This document shows positions 12,206-17,072 of a stretch of DNA of 64,000 nucleotides, in pieces. Under the pieces are notes generated by a model that made no database searches, had not been told where the DNA came from, and worked only from the letters and a program-made list of their open reading frames with translations. Source of the DNA: an uncultured Spirochaetota bacterium (GTDB lineage Bacteria > Spirochaetota > Brevinematia > Brevinematales > JAOACQ01); assembly GCA_963783575.1 (NCBI GenBank), contig CAWAOD010000014.1, positions 379,218-443,217 of the forward strand, read 5' to 3'. Both the position numbers and the translations under genes were made by a program. Position 1 is the stretch's first letter, and the number at the start of each line of letters is the position of its first letter.

Positions 12206-12549
12206 GCAGACCGGGAAAAATGATTCCATTTATAATGCGTATGCTTATAAATAAACCTGCTACAGTTCTCTATCCTTACGAAACTGTAAAAATACCTGAA
12301 AATTTCAGGGGAAAACTGGAATTTTACGCTGATAAATGCATAGGCTGTAAAATGTGCATGAGAGATTGCCCTTCTGATGCGATCCTTATTGAAAAGATCG
12401 GGGAGAAACAGTTTAAATGCGAAGTTTACCTTGACCGATGTATTTACTGCGGACAATGCATGGAGAGCTGCCCCAAAAAAGCCCTCAGAAATACAAAGGA
12501 ATTCGAGCTTGCGAATTATACAAGGGATAAGCTTAAGGTTGAAATCTAA
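12202..12549 (+). CDS. 2x[4Fe-4S] subunit (NuoI/EchF/MbhN)
   Basis: CIGCKMCMRDCP and CIYCGQCMESCP. Confidence 0.95.
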   Translation: MSRPGKMIPFIMRMLINKPATVLYPYETVKIPENFRGKLEFYADKCIGCKMCMRDCPSDAILIEKIGEKQFKCEVYLDRCIYCGQCMESCPKKALRNTKEFELANYTRDKLKVEI

Positions 12550-13044
12550 GTGAACATTGATTTTGAAACTGCTATGAAAGACCGGCTAAAATTTGCAAAT
12601 AAAGTCGCTATTTTAGGCATCGGTTCGATTATAATGTCGGATGATGCCGCCGGAATCAGGATTGCGGAAAATCTGCAAAAAAGATTCGTGGATAAGGAAA
12701 AAATAAAAACATATCTCGGCAACACAGCCCCGGAGAACTTTACCGGTGAGATAAAAAATTTTCAACCCGATCATTTGATAATAATCGATGCCGCCGACCT
12801 TAAAGAAAAACCCGGAAGCATAATGATAATCGATCCGGAAGTTATAGATGGAATTTCTTTCAGTACTCATATGCTTCCATTAAGAGTGATGGTTGAATAT
12901 TTGAAAAAAGAAGCCGGTTGTCAGACAACAATACTTGGCGTTCAGCCTGAAAACATTTCCTTCGGTGAGAATTTAAGCCCTTCCGTAGAAATTGCCGTTC
13001 AAGAAATGTCTGATATAATAGGCAACGCTATTCCGGCAGCATAA
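12550..13044 (+). CDS. hycI: Hydrogenase maturation protease (HycI family)
   Basis: GIGS...DDAAG, APEN, IIDAAD, STH..PL. Confidence 0.9.
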   Translation: MNIDFETAMKDRLKFANKVAILGIGSIIMSDDAAGIRIAENLQKRFVDKEKIKTYLGNTAPENFTGEIKNFQPDHLIIIDAADLKEKPGSIMIIDPEVIDGISFSTHMLPLRVMVEYLKKEAGCQTTILGVQPENISFGENLSPSVEIAVQEMSDIIGNAIPAA

Positions 13045-13133
13045 TTCTGCATTCAAAATTCATAGAATATAACTTTCTTTCTTTGCCATTTTATCCATAT
13101 TCTAATCAAAATTTTAAAAGGGGAAAATATATA

Positions 13134-13790
13134 ATGGAAGGTAGAGAAGTATTTGGAATTTTACGATTCAATAAACTTGAATATTTAGAGTCTCTTTTAT
13201 CTGGAAAATTACATATGAAGTTAGGAAGTTATTATCAACAAGAGATAGAAAATATTAGAAAGGACAATAAAGATTGTATTAGTCAGTTGTTACAAAAGGA
13301 TAAAATCACAGTTAAAATTGGAGAGCATATAATTAATTCTGATGATTTAACAAGTCCTGTAATAATAGCTAATTCTTCAGATTTAAATGTGAAAGTAATG
13401 TGTTGTTATGCTATAACAAATGATTTAATTGACAATGGCAAATTGAAATATAATTCAAAAATATTTGAATTTGGTGATTATTTTATTGTATTTCATAATG
13501 CTATTGAATTTACTAATAGAATTCATAAATCTCTTGATAAATCATCTCTAATAAAATGGCATTTAACAGGTAAGTTAATTCAATACAAAGATTTTTCTAT
13601 ATATCATGGAAACGTTGGCCCCTTTATTAAGGATAAAGAATATAGTTATCAAAATGAATGGAGATTTGCAATTTATCATGATGATAAATCCAAAGCAATA
13701 GACTTAGATATTGGAGATATATCTGATATTGCAAGTATTCATAAAACTTGCGATATTGAAAAATTAACAAAAATCACTCATTTAAATTAA
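13134..13790 (+). CDS. Hypothetical AT-rich protein with a K..Y.YQ.E.R motif (loosely DUF2971-like)
   Basis: ATG 13134 after AGGGG; FIKDKEYSYQNEWRF; more AT-rich than the flanking operons. Confidence 0.7.
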   Translation: MEGREVFGILRFNKLEYLESLLSGKLHMKLGSYYQQEIENIRKDNKDCISQLLQKDKITVKIGEHIINSDDLTSPVIIANSSDLNVKVMCCYAITNDLIDNGKLKYNSKIFEFGDYFIVFHNAIEFTNRIHKSLDKSSLIKWHLTGKLIQYKDFSIYHGNVGPFIKDKEYSYQNEWRFAIYHDDKSKAIDLDIGDISDIASIHKTCDIEKLTKITHLN

Positions 13791-13842
13791 AATCTGAATA
13801 GGCATAAAAAAATTAATAATAAGAATCTACCTGAACGAACTT

Positions 13843-14095
13843 GATAGGTATATTATTTTATATTGAGCAAATAGCCTAATATGAACTGAGTTTATTATAA
13901 GCCCTTCGACAAGGCTCTGTGCAGGCTCTGCTCAACAACCGCACATGGACCACAAAAGACAGAAGCGGAACACAGAAACTACATAAGGACTCTTCAAGCA
14001 ACATAAAAACTGTAGCGAACGCAAGTTAGCCATGCCCAAACCATATAAGGCACATGGACGTACCATGATAACTACCCTATAGTCAAACAGGCCGC
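13843..14095. repeat. ~255-bp direct repeat, copy 1
   Basis: Aligns by eye with 14736-14993 from gatagg(t/c)atattattttatattgagca to aactaccctatagtcaaacaggccgc. Confidence 0.9.
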
Positions 14096-14195
14096 CGGAT
14101 TCTTTGGCGTCTATTTCAGTTATTGCAATGAAATACACGGAAATCATTTGCAAATCACAACAATAATCTAAAACAAATTTCTCTAAATCAGTCAT
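13932..14195 (-). pseudogene. 5' gene remnant that reads through into repeat copy 1
   Basis: Strong AAGGAG RBS 7 nt before ATG 14195; only ~33 codons lie outside the repeat. Confidence 0.45.
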
Positions 14196-14263
14196 TTGAA
14201 ATCTCCTTTTATTTCCAATTTTATTTAGTAAGATATATAATAAACATAAAAAGGGGGCCTTTT

Positions 14264-14710
14264 ATGGAAGAAAATTTATCTTATTTAATTTCAATAAGGA
14301 ATAATCTTAAAGCGATGTCTACTCAGATTGCACAAAACAATCCAGACTTTGATTTAAGTCTTTGTTTAGAAATGATTTCAGAATTTAATCTTAAAATAAA
14401 ACTTCAAGAGAAAGCTAAAGAATTAATGACAAATATGAATAAAGTTCTTGGTAATTTGGCAATGGATTTTAAAAACAATGATAATGAACCGTTAGAATTA
14501 AATTTTAAGAAAAGCAATAGAGATTATTTAATATCTTATGATTTTAATAATAATACCAAGGAAGGAGAAATCTGTTTTAGGGATATGACAAAAGATAATA
14601 GTTTTCCAGCAAATACGCTTTATTTAGGTTTAATCTATGAAGTTGTAAATTTTAATGAGTCTTCAGATATTAGGAATCTCAACCTTGATTTACAAAGTAA
14701 GCTTCCTTGA
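14264..14710 (+). CDS. Hypothetical protein (orphan, AT-rich)
   Basis: 148-aa ORF with AGGGGG RBS; no motif recognised. Confidence 0.7.
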   Translation: MEENLSYLISIRNNLKAMSTQIAQNNPDFDLSLCLEMISEFNLKIKLQEKAKELMTNMNKVLGNLAMDFKNNDNEPLELNFKKSNRDYLISYDFNNNTKEGEICFRDMTKDNSFPANTLYLGLIYEVVNFNESSDIRNLNLDLQSKLP

Positions 14711-14735
14711 TTATTACATAATTATGCAACATAGG

Positions 14736-14993
14736 GATAGGCATATTATTTTATATTGAGCAAGTAGCCTAACATGAGTTGAGTTTATTATAAGCCCTTC
14801 GACAAGGCTCTGTACAGGCTCTGCTCAACATCCACATATGGACACACACAAAAGACAGAAGCGGAACATAAAAACTACATAAGGACTCTTCAAGCAGCAT
14901 AAAGACCGTGGCGAACGCAATTTCAACAAGACCAAACCACATATGGCACACACGAACGTGTTATGAGAACTACCCTATAGTCAAACAGGCCGC
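14736..14993. repeat. ~255-bp direct repeat, copy 2
   Basis: Aligns with copy 1; contains GCCTAAC at 14767-14773 and is followed by GTTAGTT at 14999-15005. Confidence 0.9.
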
Positions 14994-15089
14994 TGAACGT
15001 TAGTTCGGCGAGCGGCACGATGTCAATAGCTTTTATTTATTCAATAATAATGCCGAACGAATGTGCGGCGGCGATGTCGCAAGGGCTTG

Positions 15090-17072
15090 TTATTCCTTAT
15101 AAATGCCCAATCCCTCGAACTTTTTTCCATTTGCACGGAAATATGACATGAAGAATTCATAATATTCAAGTCTCAGAGATTGTATCGCTACAATTCCCCC
15201 TTCAAAACCGACGACAAAGAGGTTTCCGATAAGAATGATAAGCCATTGAACGGGAAGTATGTTCGACATTCCGGCAAGGATAAAGAAAGCCCCCATAAGT
15301 GCGGCATGGTTAAGCGCAAAGGCCCCGATTCTCATAAATGATATGGTTTTACTGATGAAAGAAATCAGGGTTTCAAAAACATCGACAAAACCAAGTATCA
15401 TACTTGGCTTTTCTTCATGTTCACCTTCTTCGTGCTTGTGAGGAAAAAGGAGTTCTAGTCTTTTTTCTAAAAGTATCGCTATCATACTTATTAAAATGAT
15501 AATAATAATAGTTATATTTAAAATGCCGGAAAGTGGGAAACCCTTTCCGCTGATCAAAGAATAACCGATGTCGACAAGACCTAAATACAGCAGAAGTCCG
15601 GCAATTCCTGTGGTTGAAAAAAACAAACGCCCGTAATTCCTTTCAAGAATGCTGTTGATAATGCTGAGGATTGTTCCAAGTGTTATGATAACGGCACCGA
15701 AGGCAATAGTAACCATCAATATACCCATGATATTCCCGGAAGGATTCATCCATAGAGGTTTAAAAATATTCTCATGCCCAAAGACGGAACCGTATAAAAA
15801 ACCGAATATTATTGACGATAAGCCTACATAAAACACAACTGTGGCAAAGCTTTTCATCGATTTAAATTTCTTCACCAGCATACCTGTCAATCCGATAAGG
15901 GCAAGAACAAAGCCATGGCCGACATCACCGAACATGGCGCCATACATTAAAACATAAGCGGCTGCGGCAAGAAGAGTCGGATCGATCTCTTTATAATTGG
16001 GTATTCCGAAAGTCGAAACCAGTCCTTCAAAAGGTTTTAAAAATTTTGGATTGGAAAATTTAGTCGGAGGAATAAGGCCTTCCTGAATCATCGCATCAAT
16101 CGCATCCATAGATAGAAAAATACATCTGCCGAAAGTCATTTTTTCAATAGAATCCTTCAATGAATCGACTTCCTGGGCAGGAACCCATCCTGAAAAAAGA
16201 CGAACATTTGCGGTGGAAACCATTTCTCCTTTTAATTTTGACATTGATTGATAATATTGAATATTATATTTCAGATTATGAATTACAGGAATTGATTTTA
16301 CAAAAATTTTATGAAATCTACGCTCAAGCCAGATTTCCTCATCCTTTGAATATGATAGATCGAAAGCGAATTTAACAAGGCTTGATTTTCCATTCGGCTC
16401 AAGATCATAGGGTAAGCCATAATCCTTGAAATAGACATTCTTTAAAATTATTTCTATTTTGCTTTTTTCTTTAATAGGCGCCGCAAATAGTATCAATGCA
16501 TCCGTACCTATGTTGTCTATAAACTGAACGGTAGATGGAATGATACTCATCGCAGAAATAAAGCCCTCATAGCTTGTTGACGGTACAACACCAAAACCCG
16601 CATAAAAATGTTCAAGGTCTTTAAGCCTTGTTAAATCCAGATTTGAACCGTAAAACAGGTTCATTTTCCTTATTTTTATTGCAATATCATTTTGCCTGGA
16701 TCTTAATTCTTCCAGCTTTATATTGTAATCATTCAAATCGGTTTCTATCTCTTTTATCTGTTCTTCAATTTGAAATTCATTTATAACCACCGGTTCCGCA
16801 ATGTAGTCAACTTCACCAATTTCAGAAGCTATCGAGTAATTTTCAAAAGTTGAATGTAAAAAATTAACCCTTCTTTCAAATTCCTGCAGTTTTGCTGAAA
16901 AATCATTTTCCGGTGTTTTTTCAAGAAGATACTTTTTTGCTTTTTCACCAGAAATCTCAATAACCTGAAAATCACCGAATTTGACAATTTCTTTTGATAC
17001 ATTATCAGAAAATTTCTTATGGATGAAAACATCCACTTTCTTCATTCTTTGTGATACAAACATTATCGTCAC
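15090..17072 (-). CDS. atpI: V/A-type ATP synthase subunit I (a)
   Basis: P.Y.EIDPT, YGAMFGDVGHG, SF.RIGAFALNH, QSLRLEYYEF. Confidence 0.95.
   Translation of the reverse strand: MTIMFVSQRMKKVDVFIHKKFSDNVSKEIVKFGDFQVIEISGEKAKKYLLEKTPENDFSAKLQEFERRVNFLHSTFENYSIASEIGEVDYIAEPVVINEFQIEEQIKEIETDLNDYNIKLEELRSRQNDIAIKIRKMNLFYGSNLDLTRLKDLEHFYAGFGVVPSTSYEGFISAMSIIPSTVQFIDNIGTDALILFAAPIKEKSKIEIILKNVYFKDYGLPYDLEPNGKSSLVKFAFDLSYSKDEEIWLERRFHKIFVKSIPVIHNLKYNIQYYQSMSKLKGEMVSTANVRLFSGWVPAQEVDSLKDSIEKMTFGRCIFLSMDAIDAMIQEGLIPPTKFSNPKFLKPFEGLVSTFGIPNYKEIDPTLLAAAAYVLMYGAMFGDVGHGFVLALIGLTGMLVKKFKSMKSFATVVFYVGLSSIIFGFLYGSVFGHENIFKPLWMNPSGNIMGILMVTIAFGAVIITLGTILSIINSILERNYGRLFFSTTGIAGLLLYLGLVDIGYSLISGKGFPLSGILNITIIIIILISMIAILLEKRLELLFPHKHEEGEHEEKPSMILGFVDVFETLISFISKTISFMRIGAFALNHAALMGAFFILAGMSNILPVQWLIILIGNLFVVGFEGGIVAIQSLRLEYYEFFMSYFRANGKKFEGLGIYKE

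Follow-up and report, generated by a model that had tools for sequence, protein, structure and literature searches.

Are two long direct repeats, each standing shortly behind an orphan open reading frame (ORF), sites at which genes are captured, structured RNAs, or something more ordinary? The question was raised by a 64,000-nt stretch (the window) of contig CAWAOD010000014.1 from the genome of an uncultured Spirochaetota bacterium (GCA_963783575.1), where direct repeats of ~255 bp each were found at 13843-14095 (copy 1) and 14736-14993 (copy 2). An earlier sequence-only reading of this locus had offered three explanations for the pair: a recombination substrate, a non-autonomous element and a structured RNA. 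The second of these was supported by more than 100 dispersed non-coding hairpin copies and clear stem covariation, while the other two were not. We think it probable that the repeats are a degenerate, locally duplicated mosaic of two dispersed hairpin-repeat families, and likely relics rather than gene-moving sites. Namely, the 5' third of each copy would be a long imperfect hairpin of a BOX-like family, here called A-X-C. The remainder would consist of two head-to-tail members of a family of ~100-nt units, intact examples of which carry three short hairpins (H1, H2 and H3).

Anatomy of the repeat pair

The two copies were 87-92% identical across most of their length. A repeat finder joined them through three gap-free blocks (108 nt at 92%, 104 nt at 87% and 54 nt at 81% identity), in agreement with the direct repeats proposed earlier. 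According to the MAFFT alignment, the mean column identity was 89%, flanks included, and the copies differed by three indels, of which 3 nt and 2 nt lay inside the repeat and 3 nt just beyond its 3' end. The 3' end was indeed identical over 26 nt. This word and a 27-nt stretch at the 5' side each occurred exactly twice in the window (shuffle mean 0.00 for both). Similarity between the copies went on, decayed, past 14095 and 14993 through one more hairpin.

Several other claims of the sequence-only reading were confirmed. The copies began 52 and 25 nt past the stops of the preceding ORFs (13790 and 14710), and no kinship joined the two ORFs (best BLASTP E = 20). The 5' stem TTGAGCA...TGCTCAA was present in both copies when the 73-nt segments were folded in isolation, and the middle was A/C-rich (GC skew -0.13 and AT skew +0.22 over 13800-14199). 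On the other hand, the description of the whole elements as structured was not confirmed, as copy 1 folded at z = -0.54 and copy 2 with its tail at z = -1.32 against dinucleotide shuffles. The proposed mutual pairing of the element ends appeared in neither centroid structure.

Both copies opened with a 20-nt AT-rich leader, which was followed in turn by the 5' hairpin, an H3-like remnant in decay, a unit of subfamily B and a second unit (coordinates are collected in Table 1). The 5' hairpin of copy 1 was related to the A-X-C palindromic family of this genome and was composed of a boxA-like arm, a loop module with CCCTTCGACAAGG and an inverted arm. The subfamily-B unit of copy 1 kept the conserved linker ...CTCTTCAAGCA.CATAAA... 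and had lost H1, a loss common to both copies. Its second unit retained just a degenerate H2 at 14093-14109, after which copy 1 stops; it is a 3'-truncated copy. In the corresponding unit of copy 2, H2 was intact and H1 and H3 were partly decayed. Both copies had a boxA-like arm, and a boxC-like end was found solely after copy 2. Longer relatives with the same order of parts were located at C5:557.2k, C3:166.0k, C12:75.4k, C4:141.2k, C13:162.1k and C13:193.8k. They comprised a palindromic module, an H3-like hairpin, a subfamily-B unit with the conserved linker, sometimes another unit, and a boxC-like end.

By BLAST the copies were 87% identical to each other, while the next best genomic match reached 79% over 148 nt. 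No further copy of the window type was found in the metagenome collection by two exact-pattern scans, which diverged relatives would escape. Since the copies were mutually closest and shared decayed hairpins, they were likely produced by a single local event, a duplication or recombination, in a composite that was degenerate already. AT-rich accessory DNA, comprising orfB and a putative gene remnant, lies between them.

A family of three-hairpin units

The genome searched comprised 4.9 Mb on 18 contigs (89.85% complete, with 4.9% estimated contamination). Copy 1 gave nine BLAST matches in it at E <= 0.01, and a profile of the two copies gave 25 at E <= 0.002, both copies counted, most of which spanned the 3' 65-150 nt. 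A recurring unit of ~100 nt was recognised among the profile matches. The unit profile, built from 28 regex-picked seeds, yielded 116 nhmmer matches (E <= 0.01) on 13 of the 18 contigs. The covariance model of the unit, R1, had 108 matches in the genome, including 14927-15034 and 14031-14135 of the window.

For stem statistics, the best 40 of 57 distinct full-length matches were aligned and four helices were written down. In these 40 units 87.1% of the cells were paired, as compared to 77.9% in shuffles, and 81 cells showed double changes versus 20.5 in shuffles. Moreover, 13 of 23 pairs had changed on both sides. In all four measures (percentage paired, pairs with changes on both sides, cells with double changes and covariation score), none of 500 shuffles came up to the observed value. 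When the 3' partners were shifted by 1-3 columns, pairing fell to 25-35%. Three helices were strongly supported (H1 94.2%, H2 97.5% and H3 93.3% paired), while the fourth, H0, was weak (48.8%). Thus, instead of just two copies without covariation, the outcome that the sequence-only reading had named as speaking against it, we found more than 100 family copies with covarying stems.

H1-H3 were present in the minimum-energy structure of all six canonical units that we folded. Five of them had z values from -2.6 to -4.3; the sixth, one of two subfamily-B units tested, had z = -1.39. By comparison, the unit parts of the window folded at z = -0.19, -1.29 and +1.48. In all likelihood the window copies were relics that have little function, if any.

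Pairwise identity among the 40 units had a median of 67% and a maximum of 87%, therefore the family was old and had no recent burst. By part, the median identity was 79% for stems, 78% for loops and 46% for linkers. The sole identical unit copies were six that were carried beside an IS5/IS1182-type transposase gene (IS, insertion sequence). A short peptide starting at a conserved ATGA after H1 was also considered as a product of the units and was rejected by eye, since stops and frames varied between copies.

Covarying stems, together with loops far better conserved than linkers, are also what a structured non-coding RNA (ncRNA) gene, or a cis-regulatory element in the 3' untranslated region of the upstream ORFs, might display. 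Both copies were co-oriented with an ORF and lay close behind it, and the degenerate H2 at 14093-14109, a hairpin with a T-rich tail, was the sole terminator-like site in the scan. However, no Rfam family was matched at E <= 1 beyond chance level in the window region or the canonical copies: the whole window had no match at gathering score, and positions 12500-16000 together with 15.5 kb of canonical loci gave only chance-level miRNA and snoRNA matches (E 0.5-0.6). A promoter-like scan was at background (15 found versus 12.4 +/- 3.4), and the whole elements folded like shuffles. Units in gaps between co-directional genes had no orientation bias, as 28 ran along the genes and 32 opposed them, and arrays occurred on either strand. 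Finally, the hairpins that covaried in the family were those mostly lost in the window copies. With these results, an RNA acting on the upstream ORFs was an improbable explanation of the pair.

Palindromic A-X-C modules and insertion sequences

A profile of the first ~125 nt of the repeat produced weak partial matches only, on both strands and all centred on ...CCCTTCGA.AA.CTCAGGGCAGGCT.... A loose regex for the 13-nt core of this palindrome had 162 matches, many of them chance at two mismatches. More informative was the combination of a boxA-like word (..TCAAG.AGCCTGCC..) with a boxC-like one (GGGCACGCTTGTTAAA) on the same strand, which was found 34 times against a rough chance estimate of about 3. 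These boxA...boxC pairs spanned 39-591 nt, 27 of them 39-97 nt, and two enclosed a unit. Their ends were conserved and mutually complementary, and at least four kinds of inner module were found between them. The window's 5' module aligned with these pairs: the inner module ..CTGAG.TAGTTTATAGTGAGCC.. was the counterpart of the loop in its 5' hairpin, and the right arm of that hairpin was an inverted boxA.

A 22-nt word of the palindrome, TTCGACAAGCTCAGGGCAGGC(T), occurred with at most one mismatch in 11 of the 301 phylum genomes, representing 8 of 125 genera, while the reversed control had no occurrence. The motif was thus present in eight genera, and the palindromic module was therefore more widespread than the unit. 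The 22-nt module was spread patchily over the phylum, with up to seven occurrences of the word in one genome (examples were G077, G163, G247, G011 and G013). A full-text search for the 13-nt core yielded no paper, and a literature search on intergenic palindromic repeats of spirochaetes found nothing on this family.

The A-X-C modules were also targets of an IS1182-family element that encodes a 494-aa transposase with DUF772 and DDE domains. Its end motif occurred 76 times in the genome (e.g., C5:365361, C5:368663, C13:159165 and C18:47831). In 31 of the 76 cases the CTCAGGGCAGGC half of a palindromic module came next within 8 nt, and in four cases the motif ran into the 3' half of H1 in a unit. 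Among the other 41, the complementary ..CGAAGG.. half started 10-11 of the 15 flanks printed. The motif almost always adjoined one half or the other of the module, or else the H1 loop of a unit, so that IS1182-family copies show strong targeting of hairpin loops. Neither window copy was interrupted by an IS. Elements of the IS5/IS1182 type elsewhere adjoined or carried single units and did not share ends with them.

Genomic context and distribution of the units

Almost all units were intergenic (110/116). They formed 86 clusters, of which 61 were single, 20 double and 5 triple, and the 25 multi-unit clusters comprised 18 direct arrays and 7 mixed ones. Gaps between convergent genes held 26 of the 82 clusters that were classified by gene orientation, as compared to an expectation of 13% by gap count and 15% by gap length (binomial p 1.2e-5 and 1.5e-4, respectively). 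Conversely, gaps between divergent genes held 13 of the 82, against 23-28% expected. The neighbours of the units were ordinary genes, such as those for a short-chain dehydrogenase, an RNA methyltransferase, MatE and PEP mutase.

The family was narrowly distributed. Model R1 had four matches in the sole other genome of the same genus (57% complete), and 10 further genomes from the family had none. Under stricter filters, R1 matches were confined to 2 of the 43 genomes in the class, and the unit family had no match in the 41 other genomes of the class. One of the four unit loci of the same-genus genome had a clear counterpart in the genome studied here. An exact-pattern scan for the H2-H3 core in a collection of genome contigs, which possibly left this genome outside and missed diverged relatives, had no match, and neither had a viral scan for the unit core with the same blindness to diverged relatives.

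These data bear directly on the possibility that the repeats were integron-like cassette recombination sites, or an analogue of them, where an ORF and its downstream element would form a mobile cassette captured at the element. The sites of this kind in integrons, attC, are single imperfect hairpins of roughly 57-141 nt with the core RYYYAAC...GTTRRRY. Two unrelated, co-oriented, AT-rich orphan ORFs, each standing before a copy and lying together between housekeeping operons, were in line with such a cassette. So was GCCTAAC with a downstream GTTAG, which had been noted earlier and was found in copy 2. Additionally, an AT-rich stretch of ~1 kb in which all ORFs were broken lay between two inverted units at C13:128603-129780, a second spot with AT-rich accessory DNA between units.

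However, the core was not kept between the copies: copy 1 had GCCTAAT and, in the alignment, no GTTAG at the matching position, while the GTTAGTT of copy 2 violated RRRY. Each element was 255 bp long with several hairpins instead of one imperfect hairpin. In this 89.85% complete genome, no match to the integron integrase model TIGR02249 reached the cut-off of 265 bits (best 100.5), and the contig of the window had no match at all; sub-threshold matches were all that 14 of 14 control genomes had as well. Most units were located between ordinary genes, often in tandem without an intervening ORF. Their clusters were not enriched in AT-rich flanks either, since flanks below 27% GC were found for 4 of 85 clusters versus 193 of 2319 (Mann-Whitney p 0.65), which speaks against a general role of the units in importing foreign genes. 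Only two gene-plus-element units were found, as the composite existed as this single pair in the genome BLAST and the two metagenome scans. A cassette site was consequently very unlikely, and the recombination substrate proposed in the sequence-only reading was not supported.

Search for enzymes associated with the repeats

No transposase gene adjoined the window copies. In the genome as a whole, the TnpB/Cas12f Zn-ribbon (PF07282) had no match, and a search with PF01548 had 12 IS110 matches, 10 of them over the cut-off. The presence of IS110-family genes was one reason to consider a guide or scaffold RNA of a transposon nuclease or recombinase, such as the omega-RNA of TnpB or IscB or the bridge RNA of IS110. 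The repeats also had a conserved 3' boundary followed by variable sequence, and their 3' part was commoner than the whole element. On the other hand, neither the TnpB/Cas12f Zn-ribbon nor a transposase gene beside the window copies was found, and the ~330 nt upstream of three IS110 copies were unlike the element by eye and unmatched by the profile search. We regard a guide RNA as the least credible of the explanations, with hardly any probability.

The three IS110 copies in question were near-identical (361 aa; C13:280071, C16:220579 and C5:69873) and shared these ~330 nt ahead of the start codon. A further upstream flank, with ...AATGGCG.TC.TGC just before the boundary, was common to two of the three, and similar words bordered several units elsewhere. 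This suggests that the IS110 flanking sequence may be yet another repeat family.

Origin of the pair and spread of the families

The dispersed families could be viewed as non-autonomous DNA of the type of repetitive extragenic palindromic sequences (REPs), bacterial interspersed mosaic elements (BIMEs) and BOX elements, which would pile up in places where it is nearly harmless, above all behind the 3' ends of genes. The hairpins were probably kept by selection, and we infer that they might be recognised by some mobilising or binding protein. Alternatively, they may block exonucleases in 3' untranslated RNA.

A number of points weighed against this explanation. No mobilising enzyme was found for the repeats, and neither an empty site nor a duplicated target site came to light, so their mobility and mechanism of spread, like any RNA-level role, are putative. 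The choice of the top 40 units favoured intact hairpins, and related copies inflate the shuffle tests. Gene positions were those of greedy non-overlapping ORFs of at least 100 aa, which are proxies rather than curated annotation. The two unrelated orphan ORFs, each before a copy, would have to be a coincidence, which was mechanistically unexplained. Finally, the genome had two Y1_Tnp matches, both in ORFs that appeared split, and they belonged to a two-copy IS200-like Y1 element that carried its own perfect palindromes, at those two loci only.

Regarding these Y1 genes (C3:120958-121520 and C4:184400-184800), a perfect 32-nt palindrome stood before each of them, and each reading frame was apparently broken by a second, similar palindrome; both genes are likely inactive. 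The Y1 transposase was rejected as the mobiliser of the units since its genes were not flanked by units.

At least two unit arrays were located inside A...C hairpins. Because of these arrays and the IS1182 copies sitting in loops, it is conceivable that units and A-X-C palindromes were one hairpin-directed system whose loops repeatedly received DNA, the window, with its two orphan genes each before a copy, being a fossil of gene capture. A hairpin-acting enzyme would then spread the units and at times trap foreign genes between copies. We consider this system unlikely, and prefer a duplicated mosaic of two families.

If the pair is such a mosaic, an apparently exotic structured cassette site was ordinary repeat debris, which calls for caution with similar pairs in this genome, as it holds several repeat families. 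The analysis also brought to light a family of modular hairpin repeats that was undescribed and is restricted to one genus of an uncultured lineage, and model R1 can be used to mask these repeats in annotation and to flag assembly-prone sites. Since the copies were old, with linkers only about 46% identical and hairpins and loops retained, and two kinds of IS homed in on the repeats, the genome is a possible natural system for studying repeat upkeep without a REP-associated tyrosine transposase (RAYT).

Flanking genes and other observations in the genomes

Table 1. Coordinates of the repeats, their parts and the adjacent genes in the window (z, folding score against dinucleotide shuffles)
Feature	Position	Strand	Remarks
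orfA	13134..13790	+	218 aa, about 24-27% GC; no Pfam or PADLOC family
Repeat copy 1	13843..14095	+	decayed similarity to about 14110
5' imperfect hairpin, copy 1	13863..13935	+	predicted fold z -1.65
87-aa ORF	13932..14195	-	good ribosome-binding site; runs into copy 1
Decayed subfamily-B unit, copy 1	13957..14035	+	fold z +1.48
Decayed three-hairpin unit, copy 1	14031..14135	+	model R1 E 4.2e-4 (weak), z -0.19
orfB	14264..14710	+	148 aa, about 24-27% GC; orphan
Repeat copy 2	14736..14993	+	bounds as in the sequence-only reading
5' imperfect hairpin, copy 2	14756..14828	+	predicted fold z -2.36
Three-hairpin unit, 3' end of copy 2	14927..15034	+	model R1 E 1.2e-9, z -1.29
Further partial unit	15027..15094	+	H2-like 15052-15069, H3-like 15070-15080, boxC-like end GGGCTTGTTA
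V-ATPase subunit I gene	15090-17072	-	stop abuts partial unit ending ~15094

The island with the repeats was located between a hydrogenase operon (Complex1_49kDa/NiFeSe, NADHdh, Fer4 and HycI) and an opposite-strand V-type ATPase operon. The GC content of orfA and orfB (24-27%) was well below that of the contig (about 36%). Neither had a Pfam match above the curated cut-off (orfB had one sub-threshold match, E 0.0028), and no PADLOC family was matched by either. Three distant metagenomic homologues of orfA were found (27-31% identity), and the protein atlas placed it in unnamed clusters only, with a weak DUF2971/ApeA-like lead. The product of orfB was alone in its own match list among 5.8 billion clustered proteins.

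The DNA between the copies consisted of the minus-strand 87-aa ORF running into copy 1, followed by orfB. The first ~33 codons of the 87-aa ORF were unique sequence outside copy 1, and the remainder read through the copy. It is probably a truncated or spurious gene, and may be what was left of one that the duplication interrupted.

For the adjacent hydrogenase, the nearest named relatives came from metagenome-assembled genomes (MAGs) of uncultured Spirochaetota/Brevinematales, with 81-83% amino-acid identity. The hydrogenase operon was kept at four related MAG loci and in the same-genus genome. In the stretches compared there, neither the V-ATPase neighbour nor orfA, orfB or any element was found. 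No empty site could therefore be defined. A read assembly of one DNA run gave two short contigs, which covered 12970-13339 only and no joints.

Several further features of the genomes were noticed. A 1.7-kb stretch was 98% identical between the same-genus genome (C3:4274-7382) and C6:158059-159757, a contig end of the genome studied here, while the hydrogenase operon was just 68% identical between the two. The stretch could have been transferred recently, belong to a mobile region common to both genomes or be an artefact of binning. Contigs C7 and C17 had 52% and 49% GC as compared to 33-39% in the other 16, and may account for the 4.9% estimated contamination. At a locus on contig C5 (L018:1973-2438), three tandem 129-nt repeats were located within a 424-aa ORF that matched HNH and a DnaJ-type CXXCXGXG zinc finger.

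Comparison with known repeat systems

The attC sites of integrons (PMC8352920) shared with our repeats a position behind ORFs, inverted repeats and, in copy 2, a RYYYAAC-like word. In contrast, the element studied here was far longer (255 nt), had several hairpins, did not keep the core between its copies, and no IntI was found.

BIMEs are mosaics of REPs. A REP itself is a palindrome of 20-40 bp tagged with GTAG or CGTC at one end (PMC3733652). REPs and BIMEs resembled our units as high-copy extragenic hairpins that were clustered in mosaics, enriched at gene 3' ends, restricted to a single lineage and targeted by ISs (PMC3733652). However, the unit was ~100 nt long with three hairpins rather than a single short palindrome. 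By eye, no GTAG or CGTC tag was seen at the stem ends in the unit consensus or the invariant columns. Unlike the inverted doublets of REPINs, unit arrays were mostly direct (18 versus 7 mixed), and 61 clusters were single. No RAYT gene flanked by units was found in the genome.

In Streptococcus pneumoniae and S. suis, BOX elements consist of a boxA and a boxC at the ends and a variable number of boxB modules between them, and range from 67 to 637 bp; their inner modules fold independently, and the elements are apparently dormant (PMC3049150). The likeness to our repeats was in architecture: non-coding, dispersed and modular DNA with conserved pairing ends and variable inner modules that fold alone, a wide size range (67-637 bp in BOX versus 39-591 nt here), a frequent position 3' of genes, predicted stem-loops if transcribed, and seeming dormancy (PMC3049150). 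Complementary conserved ends around variable inner modules, the hallmark of the BOX type, were found in our 34 boxA...boxC pairs.

This likeness was architectural only, and a sequence relation is not expected. The repeats differed from BOX in their host, an uncultured bacterium of the spirochaete phylum, and in the second, three-hairpin unit family interleaved with the first. For the unit, no terminal inverted repeat was visible in the 40-unit alignment and no target duplication was found, again in contrast to BOX, and the loops of the A-X-C hairpins were preferred sites of an IS1182-family element. Terminal inverted repeats that match an IS, together with a target-site duplication, are also the marks of a MITE, and the related loci offered no empty site with which the units could be compared. 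Thus, the unit family resembles BOX and BIME in architecture, yet it is probably no sequence member of either and lacks what defines REP/RAYT systems. It is a new, genus-restricted, modular member of the REP/BIME/BOX kind of repeat.

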